DNA from: Patescibacteria group bacterium
GTDB lineage: Bacteria; Patescibacteriota; Minisyncoccia; Phycocordibacterales; UBA12445
Direction: 5' to 3'
Assembly (NCBI GenBank): GCA_003504275.1
Contig: DOAO01000007.1
Span: forward strand, 75,535 to 139,534
Length of the DNA stretch: 64,000 nucleotides
Both the position numbers and the translations under genes were made by a program. The notes under the pieces are model-generated. The model made no database searches and had not been told where the DNA came from. It worked only from the letters and a program-made list of their open reading frames with translations. Position 1 is the first letter of the stretch, and the number at the start of each line of letters is the position of its first letter. Positions 8,377 to 57,153 of the stretch are shown piece by piece.

Positions 8377-8515
8377 CTTTGTCATCCGCACGAGTGTTGT
8401 CATCCCAGACTTGATCTGGGATCCACTAGCATTGGTGGTGAAACATGGATCCCAGATCAAGTCTGGGATGACAAAGGTTGTGTGTCATCCTCGCGAATGC
8501 GGGGATCCAGAAAGT
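8377..8515. repeat. nested palindromic intergenic element (MITE/REP-like) carrying GTCATCC...GGGATCCAGAAAG motifs
   Basis: Perfect 26-bp inverted repeat GTCATCCCAGACTTGATCTGGGATCC / GGATCCCAGATCAAGTCTGGGATGAC, each arm itself hairpin-forming. An outer imperfect inverted repeat (TGTCATCCGCACGAG / TCATCCTCGCGAATGCGG) flanks it. Confidence 0.6.
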
Positions 8516-26237: not shown

Positions 26238-27488
26238 TTAAATTTTTCTAAGTGTATAGAAATTAAGAATAAGATTTATAAAACCGTTTAATATTTCTGC
26301 GGCTACTGCTCCGGCTAATCCCCAGATGGGTAGTAGTATCAGTTTGAGAATTAATAATATAGTAGGATTAATAACAGATAAAAAATAATTTATTTTTTTT
26401 CCACCATGAGCTGTAATTGCAATACTCAGTGGTTTTTTGGAATAAGTTAGCAGAGTAAGGGCTAAGAACTGTGAATATATTATAGCCTCATTATATTGAG
26501 GAAAGAATATATTATAAAAATAAGGTATCAATAAAATATAAAGAACAGTAGGAATTATCATTAGCAGGGTGATTTTTAGAGACTTGATTGGAAGCGTCTT
26601 TTTTAAATCCTCAATACTTCTGGATGCTATTTTGGGAATAAGCAGGGAGTTTGATGTTTTTAGCATTGATGCAACTTGATCTACCGGGGCGGAGGCGAAG
26701 GCATAGATAGCCAGTGGTGTGGCTCCCAGGTAATGGAAAACAAGGATTTTGTCTATATTACTGCTTATCATCCCTAATATACCCATTAAGCTGAGGTGTT
26801 TTCCATATTTTATTGCCCCTTTTTCAACATCATGATTTGGTTTATATTTGCTGACGGTAACGAAATAGTAAAAGGTTACCATTATTGCATTTGATAAAAA
26901 ATAAGACCCGACAACATAGACGGGACTGCCAGTTAGCAAGATGGTGACAATCATTACAGCATTTGTGAACAAGCCGGAAGTTACACCATACGTTGTGGAG
27001 GTTTTGAATTCTTTTTTTCCCGTTAGAAATGCTCCATAAAGACTAAGGTTTGTCGTTATTGGCGACAATAGAGCGGGAAAGAGAAGGGAGATACCTAGGG
27101 TATAGTTTTGATTTAAAAAATAATAGGCAGAGATAGCTAACGATATTGATGTGGGAATGAAGCTCCACTTAAAACCTGTTTTAATCGCGGCATACATAGT
27201 ACCTTCAAACCCTCGGGAAACTGATTGGGCTACAATAGTTCCAAGTCCTGTCAGATAGAAGGCACTCGTTATTCCCGCTAAAGACATAATATATTTGTAG
27301 CTTCCATATGAATCTTTTGGGAAGTAGTTTGCAAAAACGAGAGACATTATGAATGTCCCAATCATAGATACACCAAAACCGGAACCAAGCCAAAAACCGC
27401 CCTTAGCGAAATAGACCAGGTCGGTTTTTAAATATCTTCCACCTAGTTTAAGCCATTCAAATACCTTTATCTTTATTTTTTTCAGCAT
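26238..27488 (-). CDS. oligosaccharide flippase (Wzx/MOP superfamily polysaccharide biosynthesis protein)
   Basis: 416 aa, ~12 TM helices, general MOP flippase architecture. Confidence 0.6.
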   Translation of the reverse strand: MLKKIKIKVFEWLKLGGRYLKTDLVYFAKGGFWLGSGFGVSMIGTFIMSLVFANYFPKDSYGSYKYIMSLAGITSAFYLTGLGTIVAQSVSRGFEGTMYAAIKTGFKWSFIPTSISLAISAYYFLNQNYTLGISLLFPALLSPITTNLSLYGAFLTGKKEFKTSTTYGVTSGLFTNAVMIVTILLTGSPVYVVGSYFLSNAIMVTFYYFVTVSKYKPNHDVEKGAIKYGKHLSLMGILGMISSNIDKILVFHYLGATPLAIYAFASAPVDQVASMLKTSNSLLIPKIASRSIEDLKKTLPIKSLKITLLMIIPTVLYILLIPYFYNIFFPQYNEAIIYSQFLALTLLTYSKKPLSIAITAHGGKKINYFLSVINPTILLILKLILLPIWGLAGAVAAEILNGFINLILNFYTLRKI

Positions 27489-27606
27489 CTTAACAATTTT
27501 AGACTATTTGTCGTCCTTTTGATAGAGTTACCGTTATTGAAACTATTGTTTGTGTTATTTGGTTACAAATACACCCTATTAAATAAAATTTAAAATTAAA
27601 TAATAT

Positions 27607-27864
27607 ATGTACTGCTATGTCTATGTTTTGAGGTCTGATAAGGATGGTAAAATGTATACTGGTTATACAAATAATTTAAAATTTAGATTTGATAGTCACA
27701 ATAAGGGTCTAGTGTTCTCAACAAAAAACAGAAAACCTTTTAAATTGATATATTTTGAGGGGTGCTTAAATCAACAAGATGCGACTAGGCGTGAAAAATA
27801 TTTGAAGACTATTTATGGAAAGAGGTTTATTAAAAGCAGGATCAAATCTTATTTAATAGGGTAA
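27607..27864 (+). CDS. GIY-YIG nuclease domain protein
   Basis: CYVYVLRSDKDGKMYTGYTNNLKFRFDSHN carries the GIY...YTG core. 85 aa. Confidence 0.55.
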   Translation: MYCYVYVLRSDKDGKMYTGYTNNLKFRFDSHNKGLVFSTKNRKPFKLIYFEGCLNQQDATRREKYLKTIYGKRFIKSRIKSYLIG

Positions 27865-27927
27865 ATGAAAAATAAATACAAGATAGGGGTGGCGGGGGTT
27901 GGGATGGTGGGTGTTCAGGTGAGATAA
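27865..27927 (+). pseudogene. duplicated 5' fragment (20 codons) of the downstream UDP-glucose dehydrogenase-like gene
   Basis: MKNKYKIGVAGVGMVGVQVR* matches the start of the 28959 gene (KKGQYKIGVAGVGMVGVQAERW). A 37-nt stretch is identical (27883-27919 = 28992-29028). Confidence 0.6.
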
Positions 27928-27952
27928 ACGGAAAGATGGTAAGATTAAAAAA

Positions 27953-28966
27953 ATGAAAAAGGAAAATAAAAATATTGATGAAAAATTAGATAGAGGAGAG
28001 ATAGCAATTTATCAAAATAAGGACAAGGGTGTTATCGTGGAGGCTAATCTTAAGGAGGATACTATTTGGCTTACACAAGCTCAAATAACAGACATTTTCG
28101 GAGTAGACAGAAGCGTCATAACTAAGCATATTCGTAATATATTTAAAGACGGGGAGCTAGAAGAAAAAAGCAATGTGCAAAAAATGCACATTGCTAATTC
28201 TGATAAATTGGTTAATTTTTATAACTTAGACATGATTCTCTCTGTTGGTTATAGGGTTAATTCTAAACAGGCAACACAGTTTAGGGTTTGGGCGACAAAG
28301 ACTCTCAAGGAACATATCATTAAGGGATACACGTTAAACAGTAAAAGATTGGAGGAGTTGAAGGGAAAGCAGTTAAACGAATTTGAACAAGCGATTGGCC
28401 TAATAAAAAAAACCATAGACACAAAGATTCTTTCTGGAGGAGAAGAGAGTGGTCTTTTGAAGGTCATTACCGAATACGCTAATTCCTGGTTACTCTTACA
28501 GAGATATGATGAAGATGGACTGACTCTACCAAGGAAGGTAAAAAAGCCTACTTTTTCTCTTAAATATGATTTTGCGCAATTGGCTATTTTTGATTTGAAG
28601 AGAGATTTAATGAAGAAGGGAAACGCAAGTGAGCTTTTTGGTACCGAAAGGTCAAGTCTTCAGGGTATAATAGGAAATATCTACCAAACTTTTGGTGGTT
28701 CTGAATTGTATTCAAGTATAGAAGAGAAAGCGGCTCATCTTCTTTACTTTGTTATCAAGGACCATCCTTTTGCTGACGGAAATAAACGTATAGGCTCTTT
28801 TTTGTTTATTGTTTTTCTTGCACAGAATAAACATCTTTTTAGAAAGAATGGGGATAAAAAAATAAATGACAACGCTCTTGTTGCGGTTGCTTTGCTTGTA
28901 GCCGAAAGTGAGCCTTCACACAAAGATACTTTAATAAAATTGATAACAAATTTAATTAGTGATTAA
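27953..28966 (+). CDS. RhuM-family (virulence RhuM) / Fic-DOC fusion protein
   Basis: N-terminal RhuM-like region (IWLTQAQITDIFGVDRSVITKHIRNIF...SVGYRVNSKQATQFRVWATKTL). C-terminal Fic motif HPFADGNKRIGS (HxFx[DE]GNKR). Confidence 0.65.
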   Translation: MKKENKNIDEKLDRGEIAIYQNKDKGVIVEANLKEDTIWLTQAQITDIFGVDRSVITKHIRNIFKDGELEEKSNVQKMHIANSDKLVNFYNLDMILSVGYRVNSKQATQFRVWATKTLKEHIIKGYTLNSKRLEELKGKQLNEFEQAIGLIKKTIDTKILSGGEESGLLKVITEYANSWLLLQRYDEDGLTLPRKVKKPTFSLKYDFAQLAIFDLKRDLMKKGNASELFGTERSSLQGIIGNIYQTFGGSELYSSIEEKAAHLLYFVIKDHPFADGNKRIGSFLFIVFLAQNKHLFRKNGDKKINDNALVAVALLVAESEPSHKDTLIKLITNLISD

Positions 28967-29834
28967 AGCCATGAAAAAGGGGCAATACAAAATAGGGGTG
29001 GCGGGGGTTGGGATGGTGGGTGTTCAGGCAGAAAGATGGTTCAAGTCAAAGGGATTTGAAGTTTTTGCTTATGATAAATTCAAAAATATTGGAAAAGAGG
29101 AAGATCTGCAGAAAGCCGATTTGATATTTTTGTGTTTACCTACTCCCCATAAGGATAAGGTTAATACGGGGGTGGATATTTCAGTATTTTTTGATTTTTT
29201 GAAGAAGTTTAAAGAACCAAAGATATTTGTAATCAAGTCCACCGTTCCGCCCGGAGCGACCGAGGCAATACAAAAGAAATTTCCCAAACACAAATTCTTA
29301 CATAGTCCGGAGTTTTTGACCGAAGCCACCGCTTGGAAAGATTTTTCAAAACCTGTATTTCAGCTTCTTGGATATACAGAAAAAAGTAAAGATGTGGCTC
29401 AGAATGTTTTAGATATTCTTCCAAGGTCTAAAAAAACAAATTTATTAATGAAGTCTTCTGAGACAGAGGTATTCAAATTTGCACGAAATGCATTCTTTGC
29501 TGTTAAGGTTGTTTTTGCTAATCAGATATATGATATTTGTAAATCTTTTGGCGGTGATTACGATATTATAAAAAATTTAATGCTTTCCGATCCTTGGATA
29601 GGAGGACATCATTTGGAGGTGATTCATAAAGGGTATAGGGGGTTTGGAGGTAAGTGTCTTCCAAAAGATCTCAAGACTTTCATAAAGGTATTTAAAACCA
29701 AAAAATTAAAGCCAGAATTATTTGAAGCGACCGATAGAATCAATGATGGTCTTATAAAAAAACAAAAACTCACAAAAACCTTGAATAAATATTGGTTGGG
29801 AAATTACAACGAGCCCGATTTAGTAAAATTTTAA
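28959..29834 (+). CDS. UDP-glucose/GDP-mannose dehydrogenase family protein, short form (N-terminal NAD-binding and central domains only)
   Basis: N-terminal KIGVAGVGMVGV Rossmann motif. GFGGKCLPKDL catalytic Cys region near the C-terminus. Ends ~100 aa earlier than canonical ~430-aa enzymes. Confidence 0.5.
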   Translation: MIKAMKKGQYKIGVAGVGMVGVQAERWFKSKGFEVFAYDKFKNIGKEEDLQKADLIFLCLPTPHKDKVNTGVDISVFFDFLKKFKEPKIFVIKSTVPPGATEAIQKKFPKHKFLHSPEFLTEATAWKDFSKPVFQLLGYTEKSKDVAQNVLDILPRSKKTNLLMKSSETEVFKFARNAFFAVKVVFANQIYDICKSFGGDYDIIKNLMLSDPWIGGHHLEVIHKGYRGFGGKCLPKDLKTFIKVFKTKKLKPELFEATDRINDGLIKKQKLTKTLNKYWLGNYNEPDLVKF

Positions 29835-29895
29835 ATTATAATAATGTTTTACTATGTCTACGTGGGCAGGTTAAGGATTAAGAATAATTATCCCG

Positions 29896-29989
29896 ATTGT
29901 CATTCCCGCAGATAGAAAATTTAGAAAGAGGCTCAACCTCCTAAAAAAGAGGTTGAGCCTCTAATTTTCTATCTGCGGGAATGACGATG
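29896..29989. repeat. nested palindromic MITE/REP-like element (outer inverted repeat GTCATTCCCGCAGATAGAAAATT, inner 13-bp-stem hairpin GAGGCTCAACCTC...GAGGTTGAGCCTC)
   Basis: Perfect 23-bp outer inverted repeats at 29899-29921 and 29964-29986 enclose a conserved inner hairpin. The same inner hairpin recurs at ~32925-32960. Confidence 0.65.
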
Positions 29990-32769: not shown

Positions 32770-32995
32770 TCCACTCGCCACCGTCTTTGCGAGACCGAAG
32801 GTCGTGGCAATCCAGAAAGTATTATGAACAATCTGGATTGCTTCAAGCTTCGCTTTCGCAAAGACGATAAGAAATATTTTTTGTAAATTATTTTTCGCTG
32901 TCTTTGCGAGATTTAAAAATTTTAGAAGCTCAACCTCCTAAAAAAGAGGTTGAGCTTCTTTTTAAAAAATTTTTAAATCTCGAAATGACGACAAG
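32770..32995. repeat. two adjacent nested palindromic elements of the same family as 29896-29989 and 8377-8515
   Basis: Inverted repeat GTCTTTGCGA...TCGCAAAGAC enclosing GCAATCCAGA...TCTGGATTGC. Then inverted repeat CGAGATTTAAAAATTTT enclosing the AGCTCAACCTCCTAAAAAAGAGGTTGAGCT hairpin. Confidence 0.55.
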
Positions 32996-33162
32996 AAATA
33001 TTTTTTATTTTATTTTTTTAAAGTTATCCACATATTTTTTATTTTTTTTATTACAAAAAATTTTTTTATGTGAGATAATTAAATTATTAGAGCAACATCA
33101 TCACAAGAATTTTTATTTAAAAAGGTCGGATGTTGTCTCCAAGCAAAAAAAAGAAAAATAAA

Positions 33163-38158: not shown

Positions 38159-38327
38159 TTTGTGCGCCCAGCAGGATCTTTTCTCTACGAGAACAGTATA
38201 GGTTTCCCATTTTTTCGGATTAAAATCCTCAAAAATAAGGGAGAACCTTTTCAAATCCTGACGCAAGGTAAGCAGTTACCTTGCTTGGGCGCAAGAGAAA
38301 AAACAGGCTAAAGCCTGTTTTTTGTTG
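38159..38327 (-). ncRNA. candidate structured element downstream of tRNA-Lys (trailer element copy 1)
   Basis: Closed by a stem that copies the tRNA-Lys acceptor/3' end (18-nt direct repeat 38159-38177 = 38325-38342). Internal hairpins show compensatory changes relative to copy 2. A hairpin plus T-run terminator separates it from the tRNA. Confidence 0.4.
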
Positions 38328-38442: not shown

Positions 38443-38609
38443 AATGTGCCCGAGGTGAATCTTCCTCTACGAGGACTGTATAGCTTTCCCATTTATTCAG
38501 AGCAAAGCTCTTCATAAATAAGGGAGAAGCTTTTCGACTCCCTCACGCAGACCAAGCAGTTGGTCTGCTTCGGCATAAAATCAAAACCAAAAGATGGTTT
38601 ATGATTTTG
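38443..38609 (-). ncRNA. candidate structured element downstream of tRNA-Leu (trailer element copy 2)
   Basis: Same architecture as 38159-38327, with a conserved core ...TTCTCCCTTATTT...AAATGGGAAAG/CCTATAC...CTCGTAGAG... . Hairpins vary by paired substitutions (GCAAGGTAA/TTACCTTGC vs GCAGACCAA/TTGGTCTGC; GGATT/AATCC vs AGAGC/GCTCT). Confidence 0.4.
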
Positions 38610-46655: not shown

Positions 46656-46890
46656 TTTGCGCAGGAGAAAGCCATTATCCATGGCTTTCGTGAAGGATTC
46701 GAAGCCTGATTGAGTATTTTTTCTAGTTCAGAGAACGAAGAAAAAATCCAATCAGGTTACTGGTCGTGTAACGACCGAAACTCCTTCCCTGATTTTTTAA
46801 CTGCTTCATTCGCGTAAGGATTCGAAAAGCTCCTCTCATAATTTTTAGGATTTTTTAATCCGAAAAAATGGGAAAGCTATATCTGTGTAT
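46656..46890 (+). ncRNA. candidate structured element downstream of tRNA-Tyr (trailer element copy 3), with partial tRNA-Tyr copies
   Basis: Begins GCGCAGG (the tRNA-Tyr 5' acceptor copy). Contains T-arm-like fragments GAAGGATTCGAA and CTCCTTCCCTG. Core GATTCGAAAAGCTCCTCTCATAATTTTTAGGATTTTTTAATCCGAAAAAATGGGAAAGCTATA is near-identical to copies 1 and 2. Confidence 0.4.
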
Positions 46891-56958: not shown

Positions 56959-57153
56959 ATGCCAAGATTAGATGGAACAGGCCCAATGGGCCAGGGGCGT
57001 GGTATGGGTCGTGGGCAGGGGGGGGTTGGGAGAGGACGTCGGGGTTTTTCTCAGAACCAAGTTAGAAAACTTGATGGAACAGGCCCAATGGGTCAGGGAC
57101 CAAGAACTGGCAGAGGGTTGGGAAATTGTCCCGCTTCTGATAAAAGGGTTTAG
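56959..57153 (+). CDS. DUF5320-family small Gly-rich protein
   Basis: MPRLDGTGPMGQGRGMGRGQGG...LDGTGPMGQGPRTGRGLGNCPAS with an internal repeat and a C-terminal Cys. Confidence 0.55.
   Translation: MPRLDGTGPMGQGRGMGRGQGGVGRGRRGFSQNQVRKLDGTGPMGQGPRTGRGLGNCPASDKRV

Follow-up and report, generated by a model that had tools for sequence, protein, structure and literature searches.

The 5' end of a nucleotide-sugar dehydrogenase gene occurs twice at the locus described here, once as a dead stub and once as the start of the intact gene, and a single gene, encoding a protein with a RhuM region and a Doc-type Fic-fold domain (RhuM-Doc), lies between the two copies. On balance, and with moderate confidence, we favour an insertion with long target duplication, in which a RhuM-Doc segment with the start of a dehydrogenase gene attached to it (about 20 codons) was inserted by recombination at the 5' end of the resident gene.

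Organization of the locus

The window, meaning the whole stretch of 64,000 nucleotides that was analysed, contains the following features around the duplication:

26238-27488, minus strand: polysaccharide flippase of 416 aa (Pfam Polysacc_synt_3 / Polysacc_synt), the final gene of a variable left-hand polysaccharide cluster
27489-27563, no strand assigned: divergent intergenic region, common to locus L089, where it runs straight into an intact dehydrogenase
27564-27865, plus strand: GIY-YIG mini-gene unit, a leader of about 43 nt and an open reading frame at 27607-27864 (85 aa), an insertion relative to L089
27866-27928, plus strand: copy 1, ATG to TAA, reading MKNKYKIGVAGVGMVGVQVR and a stop codon, a dead stub (20 codons) that corresponds to the N-terminus of the dehydrogenase and includes the core at 27875-27919
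27920-27952, plus strand: spacer between copy 1 and RhuM-Doc, with the putative left non-homologous junction at its 5' edge
27953-28966, plus strand: RhuM-Doc (Fic-fold), 337 aa, the cargo (PF13310, 81 bits; PF02661, 45 bits)
28971-29834, plus strand: intact short-form nucleotide-sugar dehydrogenase of 287 aa (Pfam UDPG_MGDP_dh N-terminal and central domains), beginning with copy 2 at 28971-29028 (core 28984-29028)
29820-29988, plus strand: degenerate second GIY-YIG unit, its leader overlapping the last codons of the dehydrogenase and its start (MFYYVYV) at 29844, resembling the leader and start in locus L173

The short-form dehydrogenase has 540 homologues of about 280 aa, mostly in Parcubacteria. 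Homology between the intergenic DNA of the window and of L089 extends to GGTTACAA(A/T)TA, and a promoter-like site, a consensus match only, lies at 27562-27589. The first terminator-like site past the dehydrogenase is at 29927-29962, within a nested palindrome. Because no terminator-like site precedes 29927, the promoterless RhuM-Doc gene would be transcribed from the operon promoter together with the GIY-YIG and dehydrogenase genes.

None of the genes called in the 10 kb on either side belongs to an integrase, transposase or recombinase Pfam family, and Rfam searches of the intergenic pieces yielded four tRNAs only. The initial annotation had proposed a search for the cassette elsewhere; tblastn found no second copy of RhuM-Doc, the GIY-YIG gene or the dehydrogenase in the window.

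A direct repeat of the dehydrogenase start

The 37-mer ATAGGGGTGGCGGGGGTTGGGATGGTGGGTGTTCAGG is present at 27883-27919 and 28992-29028, exactly the two sites that had been reported before, and a search of the window with up to three mismatches gave no third site (0.00 matches expected from shuffled sequences). A dispersed repeat, which had been named as a competing interpretation, is ruled out by this restriction of the core to two sites in the window. One mismatch apart, the two copies agree over 45 nt (27875-27919 and 28984-29028), and in a gapped alignment from both ATGs the repeat spans 58 columns at 90% identity (27865-27919 and 28971-29028). The copies are spaced 1,109 bp apart. The Pfam identities and the coordinates bear out the earlier description of a RhuM-Fic gene between them, where it is the sole gene, and of a GIY-YIG gene just outside.

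Copy 1 occupies the native position, starting 1 nt past the stop of the upstream gene, and copy 2 begins 4 nt past the RhuM-Doc stop. In tblastn the dehydrogenase N-terminus matches 27868-27939 (75% identity, 36.6 bits), in agreement with the previous reading of copy 1 as a 20-codon fragment of that N-terminus. The 45-nt core is a G-rich, lineage-specific version that is absent from the relatives examined, and it was therefore copied rather than conserved independently. Outside the core the two copies are far more diverged than inside it, so that either a crossover between different alleles or a later gene conversion is required. The 33-nt spacer is ambiguous: this A-rich piece may be what is left of dehydrogenase codons (about 19-28) after decay, or a leader that belongs to the cassette. 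A decayed dehydrogenase reading QVRRW or QVKRW, with 9 nt removed, fits about equally with a cassette leader, and alignment to the dehydrogenase 5' ends of the window, L004, L005 and L006 requires a 9-nt indel and more gaps.

Neither inverted repeats at the ends of the insert nor inverted core-type sites were found. A target-site duplication of the transposon or IS type was rejected on length (37-58 nt here, 30-128 nt elsewhere) and for lack of a transposase and of terminal inverted repeats. Of the target duplication first proposed, the long duplicated stretch from the start of the dehydrogenase stands, but it is not of the transposase type, repeats at comparable loci ranging in length from 30 to over 100 nt. 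The G+C content of the insert equals that of its surroundings and is hence uninformative as to foreign composition.

Both inner junctions are reproduced by assemblies from other read sets. More specifically, Logan unitig L002, from another run, maps to 27890-29021, and the sister-sample assemblies L180 and L181 run from the GIY-YIG gene through copy 1 and the spacer (to 27953). These three assemblies and unitigs show 0 mismatches and rule out an assembly artefact. A further assembly, L179, stops within the core, as expected of a repeat longer than k. A 1,132-bp Logan contig was rejected as evidence of a circle, being a repeat-bounded unitig.

Relatives and candidate empty sites

The presence of RhuM-Doc at the dehydrogenase varies among relatives, in disagreement with the possibility, also raised earlier, that all of them share one arrangement. 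L004 and L005, whose dehydrogenase is 85% identical to that of the window, have neither a GIY-YIG gene nor RhuM-Doc there, and in L089 the flippase is followed directly by an intact dehydrogenase, with RhuM-Doc downstream of the latter. In L089, L004, L005, L169 and L172-L174, the dehydrogenase 5' end occurs once and has no RhuM-Doc gene ahead of it. For the empty site sought in the initial annotation, a flippase directly before the dehydrogenase, L089 is a candidate at the level of homologues, the dehydrogenase proteins of these comparators being 70-85% identical to that of the window. No conspecific empty site was recovered, and the contigs returned by an exact-match look-up with the GIY-YIG gene either continue along the occupied arrangement or end within the core.

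Loci L006-L009 carry the same tight junction between the RhuM-Doc stop and the dehydrogenase ATG as the window, without the stub, and a donor-type arrangement therefore exists. RhuM-Doc adjoins the dehydrogenase in three lineages and in three different arrangements. Among the window, L006 and L089, identity is 72-73% for RhuM-Doc, 70-72% for the dehydrogenase and 76% for SecA. This equidistance suggests long linkage of RhuM-Doc and dehydrogenase over recent import, and the earlier description of the insertion as recent is accordingly doubtful. In DNA the closest relatives differ from the window by about 25%, and the differences look evenly spread across RhuM-Doc and the dehydrogenase.

The N-terminal 110 aa of the window's flippase are 76% identical to those of L089. 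Compared with L004, otherwise the closest relative, the flippase is 38% identical over the whole protein, against 85% for the dehydrogenase, 74% for Wzy and 88% for SecA. A conserved pairing of RhuM-Doc and dehydrogenase was rejected: RhuM-Doc lies within 5 kb at 1 of 80 species-level dehydrogenase loci (L009, of the L006 lineage), and the pairing is therefore limited to near relatives of the window.

The RhuM-Doc cargo

The protein matches the PADLOC profile PDC-S23 over its full length (E = 2.1e-123, 409.9 bits; residues 14-336 on positions 4-324 of 327), and its Fic-fold domain scores 44.9 bits against PF02661 (cut-off 24). The general Fic fold has the motif HxFx(D/E)GNxR, and the Doc type carries a lysine before the final arginine, HxFxD(A/G)NKR. 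The motif read in the RhuM-Doc translation, HPFADGNKR, is of the Doc type. Furthermore, the DOC_P1 model TIGR01550 gives 37.9 bits, slightly below its cut-off of 38.65, and a Death-on-curing family protein, PDB 9vzc_A, matches at E = 0.004. A classical AMPylator was rejected on the Doc-type motif and on these best sequence matches, which are Doc proteins. The cargo as first annotated, a RhuM region with a Fic fold from a defence-associated family, is upheld, without the AMPylator assignment.

Judging from family membership, RhuM-Doc is a candidate anti-phage toxin. It would act as a single-gene toxin of the abortive-infection type, its Doc-type Fic domain phosphorylating a translation factor, e.g., EF-Tu, and its RhuM N-terminal domain would control this Fic activity. 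No experimental test of the RhuM-Doc family was found in the searchable literature on PDC-S23 or on RhuM in defence.

Duplications around RhuM-Doc genes elsewhere

At E<1e-30 the RhuM-Doc family has 7,990 members or more. Most of the relatives surveyed lie in type I or type III restriction-modification (R-M) loci. Exact flanking repeats of at least 21 nt, the threshold of the survey, were found at 8 of 75 independent RhuM-Fic loci and at 3 of the 509 neighbouring genes that served as controls (odds ratio 20, p = 6e-6). Gapped duplications at comparable loci span 30-128 nt at 73-97% identity, and at 10 of 50 loci part of the N-terminus encoded by the downstream gene can still be recognized at the protein level. 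In the window and in L127, L109, L130, L136 and L165, copy 2 starts between -9 and +13 nt from the RhuM-Doc stop, at or beside the start of the downstream open reading frame. The duplicated targets are hsdR, a type III res gene and the dehydrogenase. What is repeated usually corresponds to the start of the gene that follows RhuM-Doc, and at the other loci its sequence is unrelated to the core of the window.

L165 and L136 contain serial arrays (hsdR' / cassette / hsdR' / cassette / hsdR). Several of the hsdR-type cases share fragment and spacer by descent, so that the independent events number about 8-9, fewer than the loci. These observations suggest that insertion with long target duplication has repeatedly carried members of this very large family of defence candidates, and has done so in unrelated bacteria. 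Flanking duplications of the 5' end are not described in the searchable literature on hsdR-embedded cassettes or PDC-S23.

The neighbouring GIY-YIG gene

The GIY-YIG protein matches PF01541 (59.3 bits) over residues 3-72 of its 85 aa and consists of the catalytic domain only, with no DNA-binding extension at the C-terminus. It falls short of the group I intron endonuclease model TIGR01453 (21.9 bits, cut-off 56.05). L173 carries a copy elsewhere in its cluster, with 76% DNA identity over leader and open reading frame and 80% protein identity. The second, degenerate unit of the window is cut off by the nested palindrome at 29896-29988 (inverted repeat I11). An iterative profile search of all open reading frames at 177 loci recovered GIY-YIG genes in the window, L173, L150 and L117 only. 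From its make-up and distribution, we take the GIY-YIG gene to be a bystander, a separate small mobile gene unit unrelated to the insertion.

Discussion

Proposed course of the insertion

In the explanation we favour, the incoming DNA would have consisted of RhuM-Doc followed, right past its stop, by the first 20 or so codons of a homologous dehydrogenase. The right junction would be a homologous crossover within the 45-nt core and the left junction, at 27919/27920, a non-homologous one. The first 18-20 codons of the resident dehydrogenase would have remained behind as copy 1, and the dehydrogenase would have been kept intact because the incoming piece brought a new start codon and N-terminus (MKKGQ...). 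A plausible donor would be an unsampled relative, similar to L006, with RhuM-Doc already next to the start of the dehydrogenase. The piece could have entered as a Campbell-style circle or as a linear fragment joined by homology at one end and illegitimately at the other. The predicted junction of the empty site is ...ATGAAAAATAAATACAAG + core + CAGAAAGATGG, and that of a circle is the RhuM-Doc 3' end + AAGCCATGAAAAAGGGGCAATACAAA + core + TGAGATAAACGG.

Alternative explanations

An unlikely but serious alternative is a scar left by a cluster swap. RhuM-Doc and the dehydrogenase would then have been resident in the order seen in L006, and an incoming left-hand cluster (flippase, GIY-YIG gene and about 20 dehydrogenase codons) would have been joined illegitimately just upstream of RhuM-Doc, with later short-patch gene conversion producing the 45-nt identity. 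By the identities with L004 given above (38% for the flippase, 85, 74 and 88% for dehydrogenase, Wzy and SecA), a swapped cluster ends at the start of the dehydrogenase; the flippase type of the window (76%) directly precedes the dehydrogenase in L089, and the co-divergence of RhuM-Doc and dehydrogenase is expected were both resident. The stub may also read QVR..RW, like the QVRRW of L089 and P0005, where the intact gene has QAERW, but this requires dropping a 9-nt insertion from the A-rich spacer. Furthermore, a perfect core with diverged flanks demands the additional gene-conversion step, and the swap leaves unexplained why 5' stubs recur at hsdR and res RhuM-Doc loci, where no swap is evident. 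We find it rather improbable that an ancestor with the order dehydrogenase / RhuM-Doc / dehydrogenase, formed by tandem duplication or by a circle with a whole dehydrogenase, lost most of its upstream copy while other deletions gave the L089 and L006 orders. All three orders are present among equidistant relatives, and the window resembles an intermediate between the L089 order (dehydrogenase, RhuM-Doc) and the L006 order (RhuM-Doc, dehydrogenase), but at least two or three events are needed, the diverged flanks remain to be explained, and two full dehydrogenase copies occur at no locus among 80 genome loci and the look-ups.

The mobilizer proposed in the initial annotation, the GIY-YIG nuclease, now appears very improbable. 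It would have cut near the dehydrogenase start, with RhuM-Doc copied in during repair, or acted by homing-type mobilization. Its gene does stop 1 nt ahead of copy 1, double-strand breaks are suspected for insertions with long target duplication (PMC2853133), and RhuM and GIY-YIG genes are also neighbours in L150 and at one published type I locus (PMC9881135). Nevertheless, the gene lies outside the repeats, the fetched flanks of the other duplication-flanked RhuM-Doc loci contain no GIY-YIG gene, and its frequency near RhuM-Doc (3 of 80 loci) is not clearly higher than at dehydrogenase loci (1 of 80). The occupied site, moreover, keeps an intact target and would not be immune to cutting, and the protein has the shortcomings already described: a lone catalytic domain, failure against the intron endonuclease model and the character of a mobile unit of its own. 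We attach scarcely any probability to site-specific integration, with the 45-nt core as att core of an integrase-less element of about 1.1 kb that a tyrosine or serine recombinase encoded elsewhere would mobilize in trans. The attL and attR sites of integrated elements classically have an identical core and arms that diverge, and gene-integrating elements do bring a replacement gene end; on the other hand, a recombinase is absent within 10 kb, inverted core-type sites are lacking and other RhuM-Doc loci use unrelated repeats. Their targets (dehydrogenase, hsdR, res) and repeat lengths (30 to more than 100 nt) vary as they would not with a sequence-specific recombinase.

Implications

Should complete genomes bear this out, stubs of this kind would provide a simple sequence signature for recently acquired defence genes, as well as natural material to work out the recombination pathway; the 5'-end stubs of hsdR and res would mark successive acquisitions. 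The window offers a compact case, with a 1.1-kb insert, one gene, a 45-nt core, a CPR bacterium as host and an open reading frame that the insertion itself would have repaired. For annotation, the 20-codon open reading frame is best read as a scar, the dehydrogenase as intact, the "Fic" protein as Doc-type and the GIY-YIG gene as an unrelated mobile mini-gene.

A broader and doubtful proposition is that RhuM-Doc (PDC-S23) genes, and perhaps other R-M-embedded defence genes, e.g., DUF4143 ATPases and YhcG/DUF1016, are promoterless hitch-hiking cassettes without a dedicated recombinase. They would spread by recombination at the starts of conserved genes, each cassette bringing a new 5' end for the gene that it enters. 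A 5' stub would be left every time, and successive insertions would build integron-like arrays. Local sources of breaks, such as a core able to form a G-quadruplex, a neighbouring GIY-YIG nuclease or restriction, may set the site of capture.

Comparison with known systems

Insertions with long target duplication have been known since 2000 (reportedly Nobusato et al., Gene 259:99; reference 37 of PMC2853133). To our knowledge, no mechanism has been established for them, and well-defined cases outside R-M genes are few. The window resembles this class in its repeats of more than 30 bp, small gene insert, variable repeat length and defence-related cargo, and in having neither a transposase or integrase nor an established mechanism. 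In the description by Furuta, Abe & Kobayashi 2010 (PMC2853133), the criteria were direct repeats of more than 30 bp, an insert of less than 20 kb without mobility genes, and a repeat that is single-copy where the insert is lacking; homologues of both R and M genes were required in the cargo as a screening criterion rather than as part of the type of rearrangement. In the window, by contrast, the target is single-copy in homologue-level comparators (70-85% protein identity) rather than conspecific ones, the cargo is a single toxin-like RhuM-Doc gene and not an R-M system, the host belongs to the Parcubacteria (CPR), and the insertion lies within the 5' end of an open reading frame that the incoming piece would have restored.

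RhuM-like and Doc genes embedded in R-M operons have been described (Anantharaman et al. 2013, PMC3710099). The fusion of a RhuM N-terminal domain to Doc/Fic is shared with these genes and with PDC-S23, whereas the host operon of the window is a surface polysaccharide operon and not an R-M locus. Doc of the phage P1 Phd-Doc system is a Fic-fold kinase of EF-Tu. RhuM-Doc has the same lysine-bearing motif and weak but specific matches to TIGR01550 and 9vzc_A; it differs in having no adjacent Phd-like antitoxin gene and in the fusion of Doc to a RhuM region of about 200 aa. T4 Seg proteins and I-TevI are free-standing GIY-YIG homing endonucleases, and the gene of the window is similar to these in its catalytic domain, its intergenic site at a gene boundary and its patchy copies across related clusters. 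Unlike them, it encodes a protein of just 85 aa, which lacks a DNA-binding domain and scores below the TIGR01453 cut-off, and at other loci it shows no link to the duplication.

The RhuM-Doc arrays of L165 and L136 have a superficial likeness to integron cassettes, as promoterless single-gene units that are lined up ahead of a fixed point and expressed from an external promoter, but they are without integrase and attC/attI, and their repeats are the target's own 5' end. Homology-facilitated illegitimate recombination occurs in naturally transformable bacteria (reportedly de Vries & Wackernagel 2002; Prudhomme et al. 2002), and its events are reported to delete recipient DNA in most cases. The window differs in keeping a duplicated stub; the likeness is that a homologous anchor combined with an illegitimate junction would put foreign DNA beside a conserved gene.

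Gene content of the locus

The window derives from a groundwater metagenome scaffold of 162,691 bp, whose proteins are named in sources as Parcubacteria group bacterium GW2011_GWF2_38_76. Pfam assignments and coordinates agree with the gene order of the initial annotation, in which a RhuM-Fic gene lies between two repeat copies and a GIY-YIG gene just upstream.

Genes of the locus (Pfam)
26238-27488, strand opposite to the other three genes: flippase
27607-27864: GIY-YIG nuclease
27953-28966: RhuM plus Fic protein (RhuM-Doc)
28971-29834: UDP-glucose/GDP-mannose dehydrogenase, N-terminal and central domains

Over its whole length the RhuM-Doc protein fits PDC-S23, a candidate defence family of PADLOC (E = 2e-123), in line with the defence-type cargo proposed at first. 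The proposed AMPylator activity is not supported: the catalytic motif, HPFADGNKR, has a lysine, as is typical of Doc, at the place where AMPylating Fic proteins have a glycine. Among NCBIfam models only the death-on-curing one matches (37.9 bits against a cut-off of 38.65), and the sole solved relative is 9vzc_A, a Death-on-curing family protein. By family, the protein would be a toxin-like enzyme of Doc type whose RhuM head serves as sensor or regulator, and it may act in abortive infection. The family comprises no fewer than 7,990 members at E<1e-30, with 55-65% identity across phyla, and RhuM-Doc fusions have been described embedded in restriction-modification operons (PMC3710099).

The dehydrogenase represents a short type (~280 aa) with 540 homologues that is well conserved in Parcubacteria; the family has only the N-terminal and central domains and no C-terminal UDP-binding domain, and it scores 141 bits against TIGR03026, under the 190-bit cut-off. 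No terminator-like site was found from the GIY-YIG gene to 29927, so the operon promoter probably drives RhuM-Doc and the dehydrogenase in one transcript.

Structure and validity of the direct repeat

A repeat search of the whole window recovered the identical 37-mers reported at 27883-27919 and 28992-29028, and no third site even at three mismatches, where none is expected by chance; the 37-mer is thus not a dispersed repeat. The duplication in fact extends to 45 nt with one mismatch (27875-27919 and 28984-29028, the core) and, in a gapped alignment running from both ATG codons, to 58 columns at 90% identity (27865-27919 and 28971-29028). Beyond the core the copies differ strongly. Copy 1 is, as first described, a 20-codon dehydrogenase N-terminal fragment (ORF 27866-27928, MKNKYKIGVAGVGMVGVQVR and stop) in native position, 1 nt past the GIY-YIG stop. 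Copy 2 is the 5' start of the intact 287-aa dehydrogenase, and the insert brings, at its 3' end, an ATG of its own and four codons that keep the reading frame of the duplicated segment.

The duplication is real and reproduced by other assemblies. A Logan unitig (L002) spans 27890-29021, and two sister-sample contigs, L180 (27241-27953) and L181 (27309-27953), carry flippase, GIY-YIG, copy 1 and spacer, all without a mismatch to the window. A fourth contig (L179) breaks within the core, as expected of a de Bruijn graph at a 37-nt repeat. Both L180 and L181 stop exactly at 27953, where the RhuM-Doc ATG begins behind an A7 run; their shared end could reflect a graph branch, caused by homopolymer variation or by a strain polymorphism at the cassette's left edge, or simply low coverage.

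The core is a G-rich, lineage-specific version that is not present in relatives, and was therefore copied rather than conserved. On its coding strand it holds a canonical G-quadruplex motif, GGGGTGGCGGGGGTTGGGATGGTGGG (27886-27911 and 28995-29020). Only three such motifs occur in the 64-kb window of 35% G+C, the third at 57006, and none was found in the homologous sequences of the relatives L004, L006 and L089. The motif could mark a fragile or recombinogenic site.

The same site in relatives

The interval between flippase and Wzy/SecA is hypervariable among relatives, and the dehydrogenase stub occurs in the window only.

Arrangement in relatives (identities to the window's dehydrogenase unless stated)
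L004: 85%, SecA 88%, Wzy 74%, flippase 38%; flippase / cupin-nucleotidyltransferase / PMM-like / dehydrogenase / Wzy, with neither GIY-YIG nor RhuM-Doc
L005: 85%; arrangement like L004
L006-L009: 70%; RhuM-Doc directly upstream of the dehydrogenase, tight stop/ATG junction as in the window, no stub
L089: 72%, flippase N-terminus 76%; flippase, intact dehydrogenase, RhuM-Doc, epimerase
L175: flippase 64% (N-terminal 115 aa 72%), adjoining Wzy; dehydrogenase absent
L169, L172: 76% and 70%, respectively; other upstream neighbours
L173, L174: 70%; other upstream neighbours

In L089, a flippase of the window's type is followed by a homologous intergenic region leading straight into an intact dehydrogenase, and RhuM-Doc lies downstream of it. 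The insertion and duplication proposed initially are borne out, but their recency is not. The window, L006 and L089 are equidistant in RhuM-Doc (72-73%) and dehydrogenase (70-72%), a divergence about that of SecA (76%), so the two genes have probably long been linked in the window's clade, where they occur in three orders. Of 80 species-level dehydrogenase loci, only those of the L006 lineage have RhuM-Doc near the dehydrogenase. Further evidence that the 5' boundary of the dehydrogenase is a recombination hot spot comes from L173 (2533-4633) and L174 (1962-3200), which encode an identical dehydrogenase protein (P0010) behind different upstream sequence: L173 has a cupin/nucleotidyltransferase gene between an HTH gene and the dehydrogenase, and L174 lacks it.

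GIY-YIG units and palindromic elements

Compared with L089, the GIY-YIG unit is a ~300-bp insertion (leader and ORF, about 27564-27865) that separates the dehydrogenase ATG from the intergenic region common to both. L173 holds a copy with 80% protein identity and the same leader, upstream of an epimerase gene. A degenerate second unit lies at 29820-29916 in the window. Its leader GTAAAATTTTAAATTAT matches the L173 GIY-YIG leader, overlaps the dehydrogenase 3' end and provides its last codons and stop; it is followed by ATG TTT TAC TAT GTC TAC GTG (MFYYVYV), the start of the L173 GIY-YIG, before a palindromic element truncates the unit. The dehydrogenase ends in EPDLVKF in the window against EPEKK or EPKE in relatives, a deviation that the overlapping leader may explain. 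The GIY-YIG units are best described as small mobile genes landing at gene boundaries.

The truncating element is a nested palindrome (outer arms TGTCATTCCCGCAGATAGAAAATT, inner hairpin AGAGGCTCAACCTCCTAAAAAAGAGGTTGAGCCTCT) present at 29896-29988, downstream of the dehydrogenase, and at 32885-33004, downstream of Wzy; both sites are terminator-like, and the element may resemble a MITE. The palindrome at 8397-8474 is a different one, perfect over 29 nt. Inverted repeats 28-29 nt long, with 86-97% complementarity, occur at 38197-38225 and 38479-38506, adjoining a tRNA-Lys/Leu/Cys cluster, and 8.6 kb away at 46853-46881, adjoining tRNA-Tyr; a related direct repeat (38226-38258 and 38509-38541) lies beside the first two.

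An association of RhuM with GIY-YIG may be real, but it is rare. In L150 (476-2407), RhuM-Doc is followed by a 100-aa GIY-YIG gene (51% identity to that of the window) overlapping its stop, and then by a half-hsdS gene. The type I locus of CP081899.1 has RhuM and GIY-YIG genes between core genes (PMC9881135).

Proposed origin of the cassette

We propose that the donor was a relative with the gene order of L006, which has a homologous RhuM-Doc/dehydrogenase junction, and that it contributed a segment comprising leader, RhuM-Doc and the start of the dehydrogenase. On the right, this segment would have entered the resident dehydrogenase by homologous crossover within the core; on the left, a non-homologous join would lie at 27919/27920. 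The product would be the same for a circle integrating by single crossover as for a linear fragment that is homologous at one end.

A rather unlikely alternative to such a capture is that the left-hand polysaccharide cluster was swapped up to a point within the dehydrogenase of a donor and that gene conversion came after, and it is improbable that the locus is a decayed dehydrogenase / RhuM-Doc / dehydrogenase intermediate. The mobiliser named in the initial annotation, the GIY-YIG nuclease, is an 85-aa protein consisting solely of the catalytic domain and scoring below the cut-off of the group I intron endonuclease model. Among the ORFs of the compared loci, GIY-YIG was found at no other duplication-flanked RhuM-Doc locus, which makes GIY-YIG-driven capture very improbable; site-specific integration we regard as scarcely credible.

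Recurrence around RhuM-Doc genes elsewhere

At 75 non-redundant loci from unrelated metagenomes, the two 400-nt flanks of RhuM-Doc were compared with each other. Exact flanking repeats of at least 21 nt occur at 8 of the 75, against 3 of 509 control genes of similar size from the same loci (odds ratio 20, Fisher p = 6e-6); the longest repeat among 400 mismatched flank pairs was 18 nt. By gapped alignment the duplications span 30-128 nt at 73-97% identity, and a protein-level remnant of the downstream gene is found at 10 of 50 testable loci. In the window and in L127, L109, L130, L136 and L165, the start of copy 2 is offset by -9 to +13 nt from the RhuM-Doc stop and falls at or beside the downstream ORF start; copy 1 occupies the natural start place of the duplicated gene, e.g. 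directly past the stop of the upstream gene (L127, L130). Seven loci (L109, L130, L136, L165, L126, L133, L147) have type I hsdR as the duplicated gene, and L127 has type III res. In some hsdR-type loci, fragment and spacer go back to a common ancestor (L133/L126, 89% over 559 nt), and we therefore estimate about 8-9 independent events.

Serial arrays at hsdR starts
L165, 3666-7810: hsdR' (aa 1-96) / RhuM-Doc / hsdR' (aa 4-27) / AAA_14-DUF4143 ATPase / hsdR
L136, 1801-8151: hsdR' (aa 1-115) / two genes / hsdR' (aa 1-42) / RhuM-Doc / hsdR

These arrays indicate that the signature is not exclusive to RhuM-Doc. At L114 (804-2326), a locus that also has RhuM-Doc, exact 25-nt direct repeats (GCCACATCGCGTAGTATCTCAGAAA, at 804 and 2302) lie on either side of a YhcG/DUF1016 nuclease gene (939-2111); this may be the same kind of insertion with other cargo.

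Comparison with insertions with long target duplication

The term "insertion with long target duplication" was coined by Kobayashi's group for insertions, mostly of restriction-modification systems and mostly in naturally competent bacteria, that are flanked by direct duplications of variable length above 30 bp and lack transposase or integrase genes; how they arise has not been established, with double-strand breaks under suspicion (PMC2853133). The window locus resembles this class in repeat length and in having no mobility gene. It differs in that its cargo is no restriction-modification system, and the empty site expected of the class is seen only in homologues. In the limited literature searched, we found no paper on a duplication signature at RhuM-Doc genes and none testing PDC-S23. 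Judged by its sequence, the window locus belongs among the insertions with long target duplication and is, as an instance, ordinary for the class; it is the recurrent tie of a very large defence-candidate family to an unexplained insertion mode, together with the stub arrays at hsdR starts, that merits systematic follow-up.
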